Assembly (NCBI GenBank): GCA_951406725.2
Contig: OX597819.1
Location: 59,706,001-59,770,000, forward strand
Length of the DNA: 64,000 nt
From: Octopus vulgaris
Lineage: Eukaryota
Direction: 5' to 3'
Shown: positions 6,931 to 53,351 of the stretch, piece after piece
How the letters are laid out: the number at the start of each line of letters is the position of its first letter
Numbering within the stretch: the stretch's first letter is position 1
Program-made: the position numbers and the translations under genes
Notes under the pieces: model-generated
The model's input: only the letters and a program-made list of their open reading frames with translations
Database searches by the model: none
Told to the model about the DNA's origin: nothing

Positions 6931-7414
6931 GAATGGTCCATCATTGTTTCTTATCTTTAAAGCTATGGCCATCTTCTTGTTCTGGTGTGCCTTTGGTAAC
7001 CATCAGGACAATTCTTCTTATGAATAACAATGTAATTAGATTTGGTAACAATATACTTCATTGCAACGAAGCATTGTGCAGAAATTTTGGGGGCAGATGA
7101 TGATGATATGATATCTTTCACACTGGAATGGCACAATCAGCATTTTCTATCACAAGGTGTTGATTCAGAGGAATCCTTATCTCTTTTATTTAGTTGCTAT
7201 CTCTTATTCCTGAATAGTGAAAGCATATTTTAGGTGGAATTTAATGTATCTATCGCAAGTTCAGGGTAACTCTATCAAATTCTGGGATGTTAAAGCTATC
7301 ATTTACTTTACAATAATGGCTGATATGTTTTAAGAATTACACTTCTAGAAAGTGTAATGAATAATACTTCGGGTAAACAATAAGTGGTGGTGGTGGTGGT
7401 GGTGGTGGCAGTGG

Positions 7415-7452
<38 letters not shown>

Positions 7453-9528
7453 CCGAGACCAACTGATTGTTTTGCAGTTTTGCATTTGTTTTCCTAGTAA
7501 TCGTCCTAACCACAATAATCACTATATTAATTTAAGCCACTGTGTTTCTATTACATAAATTTTCAGTGTGTGTGTGCTTATATATATGTATGTATAAGGG
7601 CAGGGCATTAAAGAATACAAGATATTTTTATTTTTCAAAAGTGTATAATCTTTCATTGATTCAAATTTAAGCCTTTTTTTGTTCTTTTAATTAGGTTTAT
7701 ATAACTTGTTAACAATGCATGTATGATTTCTAGGAAGAAGGAAGAAAAAAAACACCCGCTTGCATCATTATTATGCTTGCAAACACAAGCATAAAATGCA
7801 TCCTTTGCAAGTGATCAGGCAATGCACTAAATAATTTTAAATTACATCATTCAACGAGGGCAGACAAAATTACATGGTGTAAACTGTTAATGTGAAAGGG
7901 TTAATTATGATTTATGACTCAAATGTGAAATATTCTGAAAACATTTCTGTGCATAGGCATTTTTTAAAAACCCTGCTCTTCTCTCTTCTTCTCAATTAAT
8001 TTATTCCATTATAACTTGATTCCAATTGATTTATCACCTGCTTTATTTACTTTTATATTTCATATTTTCCTCTTAGGCTGTCGTCACAGTGGTTAAGTAT
8101 TATGTAGTTATATTGAACATTGCTGCTAAGCAGTGCAGTTTTATGATTAAGAAAATACTTAAATAATACAGCTCATCTAACAAACTAGTTGAGTTACTTA
8201 AAAATATTATATTTTTATGTCAAATTATCTAATCAGATTCTGGATTAGATAATCCATGTTCAGTCATAGCTTGACTTTTATTTTGCATTTTATTTCTATT
8301 AGTAAAATGAAACTTGAAAATAATGATGAGATAGTAAAGCCCCCAGCCTTACTGAGTCTAATTCTGACATTCTGTTTTGTTTATAATGACTGTGTATAAA
8401 AAGACAATGTTTGCTCCCCAACCCCTAAAACTTTCTCTTTTAGATTTTACAAAAAGGATTGTGACTAGACAAATTTTTCCAATGATTTTTCTGAACAAGC
8501 TTTCAGAAGCTGAAAACAAACCAGTCACATACGGCATACAAAATTTTATACTGAAGTTGTAGGTTATAATTTGGTCTAGATTTGTTTTTCTTTTTCTTTT
8601 CTTTTCCTTTTTTTTTTTTTTTTGCAGTCTCCTTTTTCTATTTCTAAAATTTAACAAAAACTTTCCTCCTTTAATAATCATGATGCAGCTGATGAAAAGT
8701 AAACCCAGAAATATTAATATTTATGCATGAGGAGTTCTCTTTTCCCTGTTTCTTTCCACATCTCACTCTGACTCTATTAAAAGAAACATGTTTTAAAAAT
8801 TAAAAAAAACTTGAAATGGGTTAGAAGGAGACATGTAAATAGGTGTTTAGCATAAACCAATTTCTGCATCCCACCCTTCTTTCTATCACACAATGAAATA
8901 ATAATAATAAGAAGAAGAAGAAGAATATAATCTCTCCATTATGCAACCCTGTAATATAATTCTCAAGTTTCACACTTTCACCATTGGGAGGTCTCTAAAG
9001 AATAATGGTATCGTTTACTTTTAGGCATGGTGTTAGTATTTAGGTGAGATGGCATGGAGTGGGGGGGTCTTCTTCACAGTTTAGTGCAGGTTCTATTTGA
9101 ATTGTTGCAGGTTAGTAAATAAGAAGGAAAACAATAGGCTAGAAAACAGTAGTTCATCTGAGGAAATATTGTATGAATAGTTAACTGCTGAGTTTGAAGA
9201 GTCTAACAACAGATGCGGCGGTGGAGGGGGGAGACACCAAGTGCATCAGGTGGGTTGTGGTGGTGGGTTTCAGAGTTTACAATTCAGATGTGTTATGGCA
9301 GATAAAGCGATTGAGGTAAAATATTAATAGTCAAATGGGAGCTAACAATATTTAATGTAACGATTGACCCATCCTACACACCACTAATCAATTAAAATTA
9401 TACATTTATGTGCAGGCATAGCTGTTTGGTTATGTCTCCCTGTTCAGCACCTTGGGCATGTCTGCTATAGTCCTGGCTCAACTGATGCCTTGTCAATGAT
9501 TTTGGTTGACAGAAACTCTGAAAACCCA

Positions 9529-23620: not shown

Positions 23621-24519
23621 TATATATATATATCTCATCATCCTCGTTTAATGATGATGATTATGATTATGAGCCAGGCGTGACTTGAGAAGGAACAAAC
23701 AACAATATATATCATCATCATCGTTTAGCATGGAGAACGGGCGTTAAACGACGATGATAATGATATATATTGTTGTTTGTTCCTTCTCAAGTCACGGCTG
23801 GTTTCCCAGTTTTCTTGGTGAGTAGGTTCCCCACCTGGATTGGACGCTGGTCCGTCATAGGTGAGCTGCAAGATGCAGGAGGAAAGAGTGAGAGAAAGTT
23901 GTGGCGAAAGAGTCAGCAGAAGTTTTGGCATTACTTTCTGCCGGAGCTGCATGGAGCTTAGGTGTTTCGCTCATAAACACACACATTGCCTGGTCTGAGA
24001 TTCGAACCTGCGAGTCCGCTGCTCTAACCACTAGGCCATGTGCCTCCATGCATGCGTGCAGGCACACACACACACATGCGTGCATGCATGGCCGTGTGGT
24101 TAAAGAATTTCCTTGGTTTCAGATTTATTCTTGCTGTAGTATGATACCAGCTGTAGGTGTTTTCTAGTACAGTCTTGGTATCTTGGGGTGTCCACAGTTG
24201 TGCACAAGAGCAATTGATTAATGCAGATAAATTGCACTTGCGTACATTAACTAGTGATTAATCTTTAAAATTTCCAATTACATATGACATTTAACTGGTG
24301 TTTTTTGTTTTATTTTTTTCTAAACTGTCTTGAAATATTTTGTTTTTGGTTACATATTCAAACAAATGTATGAATCCTGTTTTGTTTGATCAGTACTTTG
24401 GCATGGAACTTTAGGACCTTGAGTTACTTATGTAGCTTCACAGTTAATAAATAAGGAAAAATATTTGAAGTACAAAATTGTCTCAAATATATAACCCACC
24501 TATTTTTTGTACAGTAATA

Positions 24520-24579
<60 letters not shown>

Positions 24580-24581
<2 letters not shown>

Positions 24582-24719
24582 AGGGATGACCACTAAGTGG
24601 ACATCCATTATGCTAGATGTAAACTTCATATGGTCTGACCACTAAGAAAAGATGGTTCTCAAGAAAATTCAGCAAACGCCAGAACATAAGCGGGCAGTCC
24701 ACTTAGTGGTCATCCCTCT
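24580..24719. mobile_element. 140 bp MITE in a (TA)n tract
   Basis: perfect 23 bp TIRs agagggatgaccactaagtggac / gtccacttagtggtcatccctct, TA-flanked. Confidence 0.85.
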
Positions 24720-25034
24720 TATATATATGTAATATAATTTTTCTGATTCTTCAGATTTTTTAGTATGCTGAAACAAGTAATAGATAAAAGATGCATATAT
24801 ATAAATTAAGATTTTTTTTCAGTTTCTGTAATACCAAATCCACTCACAAAGCTTTGGTTGGCCTTGGGCTTATAGAAGACCCTTGCCCAAGTTGCCACAC
24901 TGTGAGATTGGATTCAAAACCATGAAGAGAAAATTGCTTTAACAAACAGCCACACTTGTGCATAACACACACACACACACACACATTTATATATTTGGAT
25001 CATTACTAATTTCTAAAAAAATTTTTTTTTCCAG

Positions 25035-28650: not shown

Positions 28651-28861
28651 ACTAAATAAGTACCAGTTGAACACAAGTCATTATAATCAACTTCCCCTCC
28701 CCTCAAAATTGCTAGCCTTCTGCCAAAGTTAAGAATTACCTAATATACATTCTTTGTTGATATTTATAGTTTAAATCAACAGTTTTTTTTTCTTCTGTAT
28801 CTTTGTTTTTTCTGGTTTTTTTAAAAAATATTTCTCAATATTTTCATGTTTCTTGTTTCAG

Positions 28862-29100
28862 TTTTGAGTCTCCAAGAACTTGCTTGTCGGACAATAGTGT
28901 CTTGTACCACCATCTATGGTATTGACCAGTTGCCATTACCACCTCGTCTGAAATCTCATTTGAAATCATATGCGATGACTAATAAAACACGCAGCACACG
29001 TATGCACAGCTTCATACACAGGGACAAGCTTAAAAAGTTGAAGTACCTTAATCCAACTGAATCACCCCCTAACTGTCGCAAAAGCTGCTGCATCAGCTAG
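28862..29100 (+). CDS. Rab40: Rab40 last coding exon: SOCS box and C-terminal lipidation motif
   Basis: tttcag| acceptor, phase matches the upstream exon; (V)LSLQELACRTIV...IDQLPLPPRLKSHL (BC box plus LPLP Cul5 box); ends RKSCCIS-TAG. Confidence 0.97.
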
Positions 29101-33891: not shown

Positions 33892-35935
33892 CAGATACAT
33901 GTGTACTTATATATGAAATGTGGAATTTTATGATGTCAGATTGTCAGATCCAGAAGCAGTCTTTTGGATCTTTAATATTGTGTGTTTGTCTGCAGTTTCT
34001 TTAGAATGTTTTATTCCTTCGACAGCTTATTACATTTTCTTATCAAAGCTGTGGATTATTTTAATTTTTTTAATTATTTTTTTGTTTTTGTTTTTTGCTG
34101 TTAAAGAGTATATTTTGATAAATATTAAAAAAAATCTGATTAATCATCTTTTTCATTAAATTCTTCATATAAATCATAAATTTGTTTAAAATATTGTAAC
34201 TAAATATTCGGCTGTCTTCCTCGACTCCGCAAGCTGCCATTGTCTGTCCTCAAATGTATTTTAATGTATAAATTATCTTGTATTTTAATTAATACTGTAT
34301 TATAGTAATATTTTTTAAAAATTACTAAAACACATCACTAACTTTAAGATAAAGAGAAAAAAAATTTTTACCAAATTTGCTGAAAAGGTAAACCAAAAAA
34401 AAAAATCATTTTTATCACAATGACTGACTGACTTGTGGATATTTATTTTAACCAAATGAAGAAAAGAAAAATGTAAAAAAAAAAACAACAAAAACAAACA
34501 AGCAAATTTACAAAAAAAAAACAATAACAAAACAAGCAAAGATAATATGGAGAAAATAACCCATAAAATAACATTTTTCCTTTACATATTTCTATGTATG
34601 TGATGTCTTTAAACTCTCTTACACTATTTTGAATATTTATAGAATGTATAGTTTTTAGCCACTTGTGCACATTGATTTTAGTGTCTTCCTAGGGTAACGA
34701 TACTAATTCTTATAAATTTATCTGCTTCTTTCTTAGTCCACTCCCACCCCTACTCCAAACTTCCTGCTTTTAGTTTTTCGCAATATATGTTTCCATTTAT
34801 TTTTGTATTATTTTTATTTGAATTCTGAACTACTCTGTTTTATTTTTGAAATATAATTCTTAGTTGCTATCCAGTGGACATGGCACTATATTTTGCCATT
34901 TTCTCTACAAATGATAAGCTCATCTGACTTCATTTCCAATGTGAAGACATTCTATTTTAACTAATCTCCAGGTATCTTGCAAAGTTAGGTTAGACTTTGT
35001 TGATTGGCAATAGGTGGCAAAGTGGTAGAATCATCAGGATGCTTAGCAGCCTTTCTGCTGGCTTTATGTTCTGAGTTCAAATACCACCAAGGTCGACTTT
35101 GCTTTTTATCCTTTTGGGATCAATAAAATAAATACCCCCCTCTGCTTAAAATTCCAGGCCTTGTGCCTTTAATAAAGAGAGTCACTATTGGCTTGGTAGA
35201 ATCATTAGAGTACCCAACAAAATACTTTGTGGAGGTATTTGTTATGGCTCTTTAGATCATGATTTCAAACCCAGCCAAGATCAGTTTTACTTTTTTGTCC
35301 ATCTGAGGTCAATAAAATAAAGTACAAATCCAGTACTCAGGTTAATTGTAACTGACTCGCCTCACTCCACAAATCTCTTATCTTGTGCTTAAGTTAGAAT
35401 TTTTTTTTTCCTTTAAATTCTATTAAAATACAGTTTTTAAAGAAATTTCCTAAATAAGTCATTTATCTAAGGCTGGTTTCCATGTTGATTATATTAATTA
35501 TTCCCTCATCCTACCTGAGATTTTTTTGTTCAAGTATAAAATTATAAACTCTATTATACATGAATTGGATTTACTTTTAAATGAAAATATCTTTATATAT
35601 ATATATATACACATTATCAAACACATACATATGAAACATATATGCAAATATATATGTGTGTGTGTATGTTTAATATGGATGTTTGTATAGTCATATACAT
35701 ATACACATACACACATATATGTGTGTGTATATTATGATAATAATAATAAAGAACTTATTGTACACCTTGCTCAGGTGCAGCACAGTACATAGAATAATGC
35801 ACAGGAAGTGAATAGTAAATATATGTATGTATATATATGCATACATGATGTTCTTAATGAGATGATCAAGCAGACTACTATTCAATAAAGTGGTCAATAC
35901 ATTTTTAAAGTATTTAAGAAATATATATAAATTCA

Positions 35936-36252
35936 CAATTGCAGCGTGGGAGGTGTTTATAAGCCATCTAAGAAACACACAAACTCCATTAGATTCACTT
36001 CAACATTTAAATTTAATTTGTCAAAATATTTTCGTCACTTTGAGACCGTGTCCTGTTCACTGACTATTTCACTGTCAGTGAACAGGTCGCAGCCTCAAAA
36101 TATTTTGACAAATTAAATTTAAATGTTGATGTGAATCTAACGGATTTTGTGTGTTTCTTAAATGGCTGATAAACACCTTCCACGCTGCAATTGTTTTCGT
36201 TCCAGCACACGATCTCACATTAGGTCACTTGCTATGCAAGTACATCTCCATA
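35936..36252. mobile_element. Foldback element with inverted hammerhead-like motifs and 13 bp TSD
   Basis: inverted repeat 35935-36194 with 9 nt loop; atatataaattca at 35923-35935 and 36253-36265. Confidence 0.75.
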
Positions 36253-39200
36253 ATATATAAATTCAATTTTGGGGGATTTATATATATATTATTTATATAT
36301 ATATATATATATAATATATGATGATGATGAATACATACATACGTGCACACACACTCGCAGAGATAACTCTATATCATCAAGGCAGAATAATGGAGCATTT
36401 ATTTGGGATGTTAAGGATATTCAAATGAAATATTAATTTTGTGATTCGTATAAGTATAAAAAATATTAATGAAGCAATGAGCATAATAACCTTTGTTAAT
36501 TGAGAATAAATGAAGAAATAAATTCAAATCCGGATAGATTCTCATGGTTAAGTGGTCATATCGTGAATTATATAACCTTCAAGTGGGGAAAAATTAACTT
36601 AAAATAAAGGAGGAAATATATAAGGTAGCTTTTAAGCTATGCATGTGAAGTCTAGTAATAAATATAGATAGAATTATGGATCATGTGACTCATTTTTATT
36701 TATCCCTATGTTGAACGTTTAGAGTCACATTACATCTGTTCCTAATCCAATGCTTGACGTTCAAAGTTAAATGCAGGCAGATTTCTCAGCGTTTTTCCTG
36801 AAACAACTAAGTTATCTCCCTTCCCAAACACCCGTACGCTTCTTAAAATTTCCACAAAACATTTAAATTATTTCATATATATATATGTTTACGACTAAGT
36901 TTCCTCCCTCTTTGTATTGTTTCCCTTGTTTTCTTTTTTCATTGTTGCTTATATTATAGAAAATGCTCTGATGACTCTTAGTAAGAAATATGTGCAAATT
37001 TATAAGCATCATCCCTGATAAAAAATATATTACACTCCCATGCAAATACATTTACTAATTATCATATGTATGTATAATGCCTGCTTCTTACTGGCTTGAT
37101 GATATATATTTTCTATATAAAGGAGAGCCATGGTGTTTTATTAGAGAAGCTTAAAACGTTCATGGGGTAACATCTGGAGCTGAAGTCCTTGTAATTCTTT
37201 ATTATATTAAGATTAAGGGTTCATATTAGTAGCAAACCAATGAACACATCAAATGGTGAAGAAGACAAAAGGTGATTGGATATCACATTGGCTGTGGAAG
37301 TGGAAGGAGACTGCTATAGAGAAGGGACCCAATCTATCAAGGATCAAGTGGTAGTTTCCCCACACATCAGTTTTATTACATTACATAATAGCCACCTCCA
37401 ATCATTTGAACTGAATGTGATATCTTTATTAAATTTGGTGAAGACATTAGGCTTGGCTTATATGATTGTTGATGTTGGTGGTGGTGAGGTACAACTGTGT
37501 GATTTAAGTAGTAAACTTTGTTACAACTATTAGGTTTTGCTTTTCAACAAAGAATATAATTCTCTTTGCTCACAACGCTTACTTACTTGTCTTGCATTAT
37601 AGTTGAGCTCTTAGTAACAGGGTTGGCATTCAGCTATCTAAAAGTAGTGGCTTGTGAAACAAATTTTGCTTCTTGTTATATATTACAGGGATGAACATGG
37701 CAAAACTGATTCTACAGGTTTTAGTGTACTTAGCTGTTAGGAACACACACACACACACACTGCATCTTCTAGGAGTGTTATTTATGTTGTGATAGGTTGA
37801 TGTCCTATCCCTGTTGAAGATTCCTCCCTCATTTGCTTAATAGTATGAAACCATATCTATGCACAAGACCTTATTATTCATACATATGATCAAGAAGGAG
37901 ATTTAAGAAATATCTGTAATGGCCTTCATAAAATATATTATAAGAGATTTAAGAGCATCATTTGTCAATACAATTTCTTCCTTTCTGAGTGTATTTGCGA
38001 TAGCATTCTACATGCCTTTCTGTGTCAAAAGTAACATTTGTAGATGCTGAGAAGCATCATGCATAGGCTGAGCCCTGGATAATTTATATATTATTAACTA
38101 TTTCATTATTGGTCACTTGTTGGTGTTTTCCAGAACCTTAACAGAGACTCATTCGATATCAATGACAGTGGATGTGGATAGGCATCCTGTGCCTTTTTTT
38201 AATATGACATATGTATGTGTTTTTGAGCTTTCTGTTTTTTATTTTTTTTATAATCTATTCATAGACACTGTTTTCATGCTATGCTGAAAGTATTTGGCTA
38301 ATTTTAGAGGTTGATACACCTCCAATTCACACAAAGCATATCACTGTTCATTGCTCTTCTTTGATGCTTATGGAAAGCAAAACAGCTCTATGTTAAAGAT
38401 ACAACATCACTACAAGAATTAAATGCTGTAGGACAAAACTCTACCATATGTGACCTCAATTTAAAATCCTGTGATATCTGCTCATACATAACATAAAAAA
38501 AATATCATGCTTGTTTGTATATTGCAGATACTTTATTGACTGGCATTTGTATAGGGTATGTATAAGTGTGTGTTGATGATTATTAAAAAAATCTTGAAAA
38601 TCTGGAGCTTTGTGCCCTGGGTACATGTAGCATGTGTTTATAATCTTTAATTATAAAAAAGAAACGTAACTTTTTTTGTATCATCACTACCAGCCTATTT
38701 TTTGAGCTGCTGATTTTGTAACAAACAAGTCAGTGGGAAGCAGACAGGCATTAGATATTGTTCTGTTTTGGTTATTTTTTTTCAAATACCAAAAACTATA
38801 AGATCATCTGCAAATATTTTTAATCCCTGATATATACAGGTGTTTTCCTTACAAACATTTAAATTAAAATTCTTATCTAAAAAAAAACAAAAACAATACA
38901 TTGAAAAACTTAAAAAAAAAAAAAAGAGAGAGATACTTGTTGAAGTTTTCATATTTGCTTTATATCCTCCACTATATTTTCACTTTGCAAGGCAGTTAGT
39001 TTGTATGATCCTGTTGAATTTTAAATATTTTGTCAAACTAAGAAATGAAAGTTGCCCATTTCCATCAGATTGTTCAAATTCTAATTCTTTTTTTTTTTTT
39101 TTCTTTTATTACAATTGTTTCTGACTAGGTTCAAAGTTAACAAATATAGAACTTCAAACCTTCTTCTTCATTTACACTTTATATTACTTTAACCGATGCT

Positions 39201-45977: not shown

Positions 45978-47060
45978 TGATGATGATGATGATGATGATG
46001 ATATTATTGTATACAGTGCTTAGGTGCACTACAACTTGTCAAAAGTGCATATAAAGCATATGCAGTAATGTACAAATGTCTGGAAAGTGAACAGTGTATG
46101 AGTCAGATACATGCTTACATGTGTATGGAGGGGAGAAAATCAGGTGTAGTGTTGGCAAATCTCAGGAAGCATGGAAGTTTTGAAGGATGCAGTGCTCTGA
46201 CAACTAACAACTGATGCTGGCAGTTTGTTCCATACTTCAGCAACTCTTAGTGTAAAAAAATGTTTCCAAAAGTCATGGGAGCTGTGCTGTTTTCTTACTT
46301 TGTAAACATGTCCATGGGTGTTAAACAGGCAGAGTTTGAAAAGGTACTCAGAGTAATTGTTAGTAAAATGGTTAATAATTTTATGGGTGTCTGCCAAGTC
46401 AGCTGCCAGACGTCGGAGTTTCAATGTATCCATGCCCAGGGAAGTAAGGCATTCAGAATATGGCAAATGCCTGATGGAGGGTATTCTCTTGGTTGCACAT
46501 CGCTGAATGGTTTCCAGTCGATTAATATCCTGGGCAAGATAGGGGTTCCAGACCAGTGATGCAAATTCCAGGTGAGGCTGCACCATAGCTATATAAAGCC
46601 CCGGAGAGTGGCTCACAAAGGACTTGGTAAGTGATGTCAAGACACTCTCAGCCTTCTTGACAATTTTAGCAATGTGTTTTGTCCAACGCAAATAGCTGTC
46701 AACAATAATGACCAGGTCACGTTCACAAGAAGACTTTTTGAGATTAGTGTTGTGGAGGAAGTAAGTAGACGCTGGGTTTTTCCCCCCAAAATGCATGGTG
46801 GTACATTTGTCCACAGCCAGCTTAAGTTGCCAGTCCACGGCAGCATTGTGTCCAGGTCTGATTGCAATAGAGATCTATAGTGTACAGGATCTGACCTCTT
46901 TATTTCGAGGTACAGCTTGATGTCATCTGCATATTTCAGCACTGTGGCATTCTTTAAGTTGGCATCTATGTCATTAACATATGCAACAAATAAAAGGGGA
47001 CCAAAAACAGATCCCTGTGGTACACCAGATGTCATCTCATAGGGTGAAGAGTGCTGAACA
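45978..47060 (-). mobile_element. 5'-truncated CR1/L2-type LINE (RT C-terminal half, frameshifted)
   Basis: SGVPQGSVFGP, YADD, V.PHLEFAS.VWNPY, FF..RV...WN.LP motifs in overlapping ORFs 46637-47035 and 46140-46838; (CAT)n tail. Confidence 0.95.
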
Positions 47061-48042
47061 TTAAAACAATGATGGTGGTTGTGGTAATGCTGCTTCTCTA
47101 GCCAAGATGATCAGGATTTCATATTTTATTTGTTTTGGCTTGAAGAACATAAAAACATTTCCAATTCAGCCTACCTCCCCAAAATATTTACCAGCCTTTG
47201 CTGTAATATATAGGTTTTAAATATTCTAGCATTGCTATATAAATGTACATCCATTTCTACGAAAACAGTTTTCACTTAAACAAAAATAAATATATATATG
47301 TGTATAGTAAATGAGTTGAACAAATATATGATGAGAAAATTGACTGTACATTCTATTCCCGGTTAATCTAGAATGGATTTCAGACAGACTATGACCACTC
47401 AGTTCAACGGTTATTGACCTTTCATATTAACCCAATATTTTGTCTTGTTCTCGTGCTCTCAGAACACAATGACAATAGCAAGCTAGACGTCAAGGGACAT
47501 AACTGCGGCTGACTAATATAACAAAATATTCTTGGTTCTCAAGATCGGTTGGGATCAGGAGCTCTTGCTTGCTGACGACTTGGTTTTTTGGTGGTACCTG
47601 TAAAGAGTGTTGAGGCGGAAGTTCCAAACATGGAAGTCTAGTTAGGAGTTGAGGGGCCTAAAAGGGGAAATTAGCAGAAACAAGAGTTTGAGTAGAGGGG
47701 AAGGAAGAGAGGATCTTTATAGTATTAGGGGGTGTCAGTGGAAGTTCCTTGGAGTGTGAGCAGTGGAGGCTTTGTAGCTTTGAAGACATGCAGAATAAAA
47801 GATCCCTTATTTGAAATATAAGTGTATTTTAACAATAGAAAGGATTTCCAGCAGTAAAATAATGCCTCAATTAGATATTTGTCTAACCTATGCTAGCAGA
47901 GAAAAGTAGACATAAATTTCACACACACGCACAACAGAATTTAATATAGATCAAACTAACATATAATGAGATATAACTTCAAGTTTCAGATCAGGCCAAT
48001 CTTTCCACACTCATTAGATGAACGTGTTATATATATATATAT

Positions 48043-53152: not shown

Positions 53153-53153
<1 letters not shown>

Positions 53154-53351
53154 AATGGAACAAAAATGCAATAGAGGGCAACAGAACATCTGGACAGTGT
53201 AAAGGGCATCTGGTAACTTGACAGACAAAAGAAGGTCACGATTGACCCATCCTTTTTTCCTGTCCCTGTGATTGCTGTTTTTCCAGTCTGCTTTTGTATC
53301 ATCTATCTGTCCAGATGTTTTATTATCCTCTATTGCGTTTTTGTTCCATTT
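53153..53351. mobile_element. ~200 bp foldback/MITE
   Basis: ~45 bp imperfect TIRs aaatggaacaaaaatgcaatagagg...acatctggacag; solitary TIR piece at ~17420-17448. Confidence 0.75.

Follow-up and report, generated by a model that had tools for sequence, protein, structure and literature searches.

A Penelope-like element of Octopus vulgaris with a predicted minimal hammerhead whose 3-8 core pair reads G3-C8

A decayed head-to-head copy and its surroundings

The window analysed here is a stretch of 64,000 nucleotides from Octopus vulgaris, whose genome is AT-rich and 2.8 Gb in size. Its positions 35936..36252 hold a 317-base palindrome made of two inverted pLTR arms placed head-to-head. The repeat unit behind both arms is ~207 nt long, with an ATG at unit position 118, a short end at about codon 12 and a tail end at codon 30. 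The features are the following.

35923..35935: left target-site duplication, 13 bp, exact direct repeat
35936..36064, minus strand: short pLTR arm without the tail, 5'-truncated, unit positions 21-150 (repeat and family alignment)
36065..36072: head-to-head junction, variable between copies (sequence and family copies)
36073..36252, plus strand: long pLTR arm with the tail, 5'-truncated, unit positions 20-207 (family alignment)
36253..36265: right target-site duplication, 13 bp, exact direct repeat
36020..36064, minus strand: minimal type I hammerhead motif (sequence, relaxed scan, family alignments)
36064-36061 / 36023-36020, minus strand: stem I
36060-36054, minus strand: core GUGAACA, with G3 at 36060 and C8 at 36055; extra G at 36053
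36052-36048 / 36038-36034, minus strand: stem II, with one A-A mismatch
36033-36030, minus strand: GAAA, followed by the palindromic loop III (36029-36026), then U16.1 and U17
between 36024 and 36023, minus strand: predicted hammerhead cut
36073..36110, plus strand: broken hammerhead, core present at 36078-36084, 9 nt deleted
36162..36251, plus strand: first 30 codons of the Penelope-like element (PLE) RT-endonuclease ORF, decayed, ATG at 36162; the same stretch opens the ORF at loci L301 and L302
36195..36252, plus strand: PLE 'tail', 58 unpaired nt that prolong the 3' end of a single arm (repeat and family alignment; compare the accessible text of PMC11167929 and PMC8557442)

The outer parts of the arms (35935-36032 and 36097-36194) are 94% complementary, and an inner inverted pair (36039-36064 and 36074-36099) extends the arms to about 120-130 bp in all. 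An earlier note on this DNA had described inverted arms of ~125 bp, a 13 bp target-site duplication and a hammerhead-like reading of the minus strand from 36064 to 36020; all three are there, the last letter for letter. It had also noticed that the plus arm opens with the same GTGAACA and has then lost about 10 nt. Compared with family copies, the loss is of 9 nt and removes the 3' strand of stem II together with GAAA. Two features had been overlooked, namely the unpaired extension of the plus arm and the stem II mismatch of the minus arm, which pairs A with A at 36051/36035. With a mismatch in one and a deletion in the other, neither hammerhead arm of the window copy is intact. When a read-through RNA of the copy was folded, a single long hairpin resulted (-172 and -179 kcal/mol), and imposing the hammerhead stems on the minus strand carried a penalty of about 39 kcal/mol. 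We read the window copy as a decayed insertion that is unlikely to cleave, with a predicted activity near zero; the copy itself bears no sign of function. It belongs to an older subfamily whose loop II differs from that of a young one, with 88-94% identity to the former and 86-88% to the latter, which is autonomous.

Strict hammerhead scans missed the copy because of its stem II mismatch, and in a relaxed scan of the window it was the sole match. Rfam gave no match in the window at the gathering score and, at E values up to 10, only hairpin-driven miRNA and similar matches with no hammerhead family among them; standard searches do pass over the motif, as had been anticipated.

The closest coding exon found encodes a SOCS box (28825-29100, plus strand, E 3e-10) and is possibly Rab40-like. 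It is the last coding exon, terminates in a CAAX-like word and ends 6.8 kb upstream of the element, for which a position in the host 3' UTR is possible. Motif scans of the 64-kb window found no 'first' foldback family with a hammerhead. Further short inverted pairs lie at 23674-23801, 24568-24731 and 53153-53351 and are possibly what the earlier note meant by its first family; the scans detected no hammerhead motif in them. At 46140-47110, on the minus strand, there is a frameshifted LINE-type reverse-transcriptase remnant, typed by its motifs, of which the scanned piece had no Pfam match.

The repeat family and its autonomous parent

A search of the genome with the element gave 4,553 first-look candidates, 40 of which were scored. 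A 19-letter pattern taken from the motif's 5' half, positions 3, 7 and 8 being left free, had 7,244 exact matches in the genome and a downstream 20-mer of the unit had 7,933. The reversed control patterns of both had none, and the 7,244 matches against zero argue that the motif is not a product of chance. Copy anatomy was read in the first 30 loci among the 19-letter matches, three of which were dropped as partner arms. The remaining 27 comprise 15 head-to-head pairs and 12 solos. Of the 15 pairs, 14 join an arm that ends at unit position 144-153 to one that ends at 200-208; counting two loci with identical flanks once makes this 13 of 14. Target duplications of these pairs are 12-14 bp in seven and 8 bp in two; they are unreadable within (TA)n tracts in five and absent in one. 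The ends were also read in 107 arms from the 20-mer matches, taken as 30 loci and a further 40 stretches chosen among the remaining 70 places, with preference for those absent from the 19-letter list. At the 3' side, 45 arms stop at the short site, 56 at the long site and six elsewhere, which places 101/107 at two sites. At the 5' side, 50/107 start within unit positions 1-12. A single arm of the 107 starts within positions 60-64 around the predicted cut, and the genomic copies therefore give no footprint of cleaved RNA.

No head-to-tail arrays of the unit were seen among the loci examined, and the two same-strand clusters that were checked, on C2, are segmental duplications, not tandem arrays. 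One foldback copy recurs with the same junction and flanks at L022, L023, L148, L150, L187, L191, L228, L229 and L232, which suggests that it was amplified as a passenger of a larger repeat.

In contigs from runs of four other organisms, which cover the unit and by their nature cannot indicate strand or transcription, one shared sequence continues past the unit's 5' edge, and this extension has 614 exact matches in the genome. At L267 the end of a GIY-YIG ORF (PF01541, E 2e-5) is followed by a microsatellite-rich UTR of ~1 kb, the unit and the tail. A search with the GIY-YIG endonuclease domain, in which 150 of 7,697 candidates were scored, put the unit 905-1218 nt downstream on the same strand in 29 of the 30 best matches; these linked units have GUGAACA in 29/29 and the complete motif in 28/29. 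The best 30 matches are 95-100% identical to the query, which points to a young autonomous subfamily. The 1,025-codon open frame of L300 contains DKSG, YVDD, a CX3CxxC linker and GIY-YIG with CCHH. The GIY-YIG domain of the element's ORF is above the Pfam cut-off; RVT_1 gave no match to the L300 frame, so the RT assignment rests on motifs and named homologs, the closest named protein relative of the ORF being an Octopus vulgaris protein at 57%. The linker fits CX2-5CxxC; a placement in the Neptune or Nematis clade would be a tentative one.

Of seven stretches upstream of the ORF front, two (L301 and L302) have the unit running into the ORF, one holds the tail end only and four are truncated. 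In L302 the unit is itself preceded by the upstream 3' UTR, which makes it a partial tandem. Judged from its sequence, the unit is the pLTR of an autonomous EN+ Penelope-like element, because it lies 3' of the GIY-YIG ORF, runs into the ORF start and has two 3' ends. The features of EN+ PLEs found here are an ORF with RT and C-terminal GIY-YIG (CCHH) linked to the repeat; a pLTR at the 3' end and, in partial tandem, ahead of the ORF start; and an inverted 5'-truncated copy with the tail at one end and a variable target duplication in AT-rich or (TA)n DNA. In the accessible text of PMC8557442, inverted 5'-truncated copies with a tail at one end belong to PLE anatomy, and Adineta Penelope pLTRs contain the first 12 codons according to that of PMC3846280. 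The suspicion of an unrecognised ribozyme-bearing retroelement family was right as to the retroelement family; the class, that of Penelope-like elements, is already known. For the older subfamily, a putative link to an endonuclease comes from the coordinates of two copies with matches 1.7 and 2.4 kb upstream.

Other PLE families from the first GIY-YIG search were rejected as the parent, as they are without the unit at their 3' ends, and two unit matches near them were taken for separate insertions. At L083, the repeat that precedes a tail fragment is an unrelated MITE. This genome has a MITE of ~370 bp with terminal inverted repeats (L105-L134; 2,544 first-look candidates), part of which is replaced by a tail fragment of the PLE at L083/L105. 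The 3' UTR of the PLE is mostly (TACA)n and (CA)n microsatellite (L267:1153-2130; L300:680-1665), which implies that the element spreads these repeats.

The hammerhead fold and the 3-8 pair

In intact copies, folding gave all ten pairs of stems I and II a probability of 0.94-1.0. The two stems close the core, with G10.1-C11.1 and an extra nucleotide after A9; U4, G5, A6, A9, G12, A13, A14, A15.1-U16.1, H17 and the palindromic loop III are all present. The canonical C3 and G8 are not: the pair is kept and its identities are reversed to G3-C8. The proposal that GUGAACA represents hammerhead positions 3-9 with this swap holds, and the extra nucleotide, which had been called a trait of some natural hammerheads, is such a trait in the accessible text of PMC4209133. 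Of 55 motif-spanning arms, 18 pass all hammerhead checks.

Among 100 listed matches of the 19-letter pattern, 95 have G3-C8, five have one change and none has C3-G8. Among 62 arms picked on downstream sequence, 52 have G/C at positions 3/8 and none has C/G. The lack of a C3-G8 intermediate among the 100 matches listed and the 62 arms was counted as a negative point. In the copies read, G3-C8 is fixed within the family, and the single changes at 3 or 8 are most likely decay after insertion. For these two reasons the covariation among genomic copies that the earlier note had proposed as a check does not discriminate within the family; it is seen between families. Within the motif, subfamilies differ at five positions of loop II and by a single U-A to U-G change in stem I, and the core is unaffected. 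In the contigs from the four other organisms, any alternative letter stays below 8% throughout the core, GAAA, the palindrome and the cut site. The low variation of the core is partly due to the small number of subfamilies.

Stem III would consist of six A-U pairs, so that the hammerhead would need a same-strand partner or help from a protein. Head-to-head genomic pairs cannot provide such a partner. Co-folding two copies gained about 2 kcal/mol and the double hammerhead did not form; the folding z-score of the whole unit, -1.55, was counted against a ribozyme. As far as the accessible text of PMC4209133 and PMC11167929 goes, PLE minimal hammerheads are slow and rescue by G3-C8 is only partial in vitro, a laboratory C3G/G8C double mutant of a PLE hammerhead being partly able to cleave (PMC11167929). 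A G3-C8 variant is reported to have had higher activity with G17 than with C17 (data not shown in PMC3884650), and G3 would accordingly be expected to disfavour C17. We think that the intact motif is probably active in cleavage, and the intact pLTR hammerhead is likely a weak self-cleaving RNA assisted by dimerization or by protein.

A second PLE family of the genome, with a 781-aa RT-GIY-YIG ORF, has a U3-A8 core, and its ORF lies far from that of the G3-C8 family in a quick tree. This family (L103:4883 on the plus strand, L104, L060-L083) is abundant with many intact copies, and L103 has a 333-codon frame before the ORF; its hammerhead, 0.4-1.1 kb past the ORF, has a CAUG palindrome and no extra nucleotide. 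With positions 3 and 8 left free, six more motifs were found in fetched loci of the genome, three C-G and three U-A (one weak). Homologous ORFs in 42 metagenome loci, many of them without downstream DNA, yielded four motifs under the same freedom, three C-G and one U-A, with none in five shuffles. These ten motifs outside the two large families are Watson-Crick at 3-8 in 10/10. In such predicted motifs, the 3-8 pair covaries between PLE families and not within them. The nearest homologous loci (L308, L328, L332 and L337, each with >880 nt downstream) gave no motif by the hammerhead descriptor. Dispersed minimal hammerheads with C3-G8 or U3-A8 at L007, L147, L201, L124, L073, L090 and L256 point to several further PLE-related families in the genome.

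Minimal hammerheads are the norm in the pLTRs of metazoan PLEs (Cervera and de la Peña 2014, PMC4209133, accessible text). The motif described here is like them in the type I fold within the pLTR, the extra nucleotide between 9 and 10.1, G10.1-C11.1, the short palindromic loop III, the frequent U17 and the many solos and opposite-strand pairs. It differs in that the 56 representatives given there have C3 (53) or U3 (3) and none G3, whereas the core here is GUGAACA; the extra nucleotide, H in the published consensus, is G here. Natural U3-A8 hammerheads (Perreault 2011, PMC3088659; Schistosoma Cercyon, PMC4209133) share the compensatory change at the 3-8 pair; the double transversion to G3-C8 is not named as natural in the accessible text of these two sources. 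Literature searches on G3-C8 spellings found no natural G3-C8 hammerhead, one large variant collection and figure-only supplements lying outside their scope; those on octopus PLE hammerheads likewise found none. The supplement text of PMC8557442, as far as accessible, has neither G3-C8 nor canonical core spellings and is hence uninformative. An apparently new core variant, G3-C8, of the predicted hammerheads of a known class is well supported by sequence.

The element compares closely with Anolis Poseidon (Frangieh 2024, PMC11167929, accessible text) in a pLTR that overlaps the ORF start, two 3' ends that set the tail, and AT-rich targets. G3-C8 was engineered there and is natural here; the ATG precedes the cut site there and lies 56 nt after the predicted cut here; the tail is 30-40 nt there and 58 nt here, where the ORF has the CX3CxxC linker. 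With the Neptune/Nematis EN+ PLEs (Craig 2021, PMC8557442) and Adineta Penelope (PMC3846280), in the accessible parts of both sources, it has in common a C-terminal GIY-YIG with CCHH, a CX2-5CxxC linker, a (TA)n preference, an inverted 5'-truncated copy, and a pLTR with the first 12 codons, more with the tail. Metazoan non-LTR retrozymes (PMC7761336; bioRxiv 10.64898/2026.07.22.740005; accessible text of each) are likewise short, high in copy number, PLE-related and equipped with a type I hammerhead; the units here differ in occurring as head-to-head pairs and solos, with no head-to-tail arrays seen, and in being colinear with an autonomous pLTR.

Competing readings, a proposed mechanism and its meaning

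We consider it highly probable that the 317-bp element consists of two back-to-back pLTR pieces of an autonomous PLE whose pLTR carries a G3-C8 minimal type I hammerhead, likely weakly self-cleaving when intact and predicted to be inactive here. A less likely competitor accepts the PLE origin and holds the G3-C8 motif to be dead or nearly so, kept as a folded RNA that binds protein or overlaps a promoter or splice signal. Copies do not start at the predicted cut (1 of 107 arms near it), and G3 falls within a TCAGT word, which presumably resembles an initiator consensus; the 5' ends of copies, about 20 nt upstream of TCAGT, speak against an initiator. In the accessible text on the Anolis PLE, hammerhead mutants were without effect on in vitro insertion and no reads ended at the cut site (PMC11167929), and Naiad PLEs spread without canonical hammerheads (PMC8557442, likewise). 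A dead motif, however, need not retain a Watson-Crick 3-8 pair, yet 10/10 motifs outside the two large families do, and the catalytic positions are all conserved between subfamilies that differ in loop II.

It seems improbable to us that the short units form a non-autonomous family in its own right, SINE- or retrozyme-like, which would have a source RNA of its own and borrow the PLE enzymes. The unit is colinear with the pLTR, the first 30 codons included; head-to-tail arrays were not seen, the two same-strand clusters checked being segmental duplications; and two older-subfamily copies have, by coordinates, endonuclease matches 1.7 and 2.4 kb upstream. In favour of such a family, the motif has roughly 7,200-7,900 exact matches and the upstream extension 614, 50/107 arms start within positions 1-12, and the window copy has 88-94% identity to the older subfamily as against 86-88% to the young autonomous one. 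Head-to-tail arrays without coding capacity, by which non-LTR retrozymes are recognised, were not what we found. A foldback DNA transposon (MITE) or a hairpin-RNA locus in the host 3' UTR with a chance hammerhead look-alike is scarcely credible. It would suit the long inverted arms, the weak Rfam miRNA-hairpin matches and a stretch of 12 nt at the unit's 5' end that is imperfectly complementary to the short end. Against it are the tail on one side only, 5' truncations and junctions that vary, duplications of 12-14 bp, the existence of solo copies, units linked to an RT-GIY-YIG ORF and Rfam matches far below gathering scores (best 49 vs 140 bits). Symmetric terminal inverted repeats, a fixed short duplication and independence from a retro-ORF are not what the copies display, and this reading is refuted by the 29/30 endonuclease linkage and the unit running into the ORF in L301 and L302.

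For the autonomous PLE and its pLTR copies, we infer a mechanism by analogy with Anolis Poseidon. The RT-endonuclease would place one nick in each strand of an AT-rich target, with about 12-14 bp between the two, and reverse transcription would begin inside uncleaved RNA at two sites, one per strand. The products would be one short and one tailed cDNA joined at their 5' ends; one RT start per strand, at two sites bounding the tail, would explain the short-plus-tailed pairs. RNA starting at the pLTR 5' edge would give rise to the thousands of solo and paired short copies. Of 23 arms with AG at the 5' boundary, 14 have G as the adjoining outer base and four have the genomic C. That the 5' edge is fixed and frequently bears a non-genomic G suggests that the RNA starts, capped, where the pLTR begins; alternatively, the edge would be a 3' splice site. 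A branch-point, pyrimidine and CAG-like stretch adjoins the edge, and no splice donor or spliced copy was identified for the unit; a splice junction is not supported, as the preceding bases vary and G in 14/23 would fit a cap-derived G better. The predicted cut falls downstream of the RNA start and ahead of the ATG, and the putative role of cleavage would be to remove the 5' leader or to split tandem transcripts.

As a bolder and tentative proposal, a young, thousands-strong PLE family may have an active natural G3-C8 hammerhead not yet in print, which would complete a C-G, U-A and G-C series among PLEs; censuses based on descriptors would then undercount such hammerheads, and the short-plus-tailed pairs would be the genomic trace of a dimeric enzyme that primes each strand at a different RNA site. 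If the motif cleaves, it would be a natural test of the C3-G8 tertiary pair, in which evolution has fixed a swap that laboratory rescue only partly tolerates. Both large PLE families examined in this genome are non-canonical (G3-C8 and U3-A8), so that searches with CUGANGA fixed would call them hammerhead-free, and PLE groups reported to be without hammerheads merit reconsideration with positions 3 and 8 left free. The strict pairing of a short with a tailed arm offers simple in vivo evidence on how PLEs integrate.
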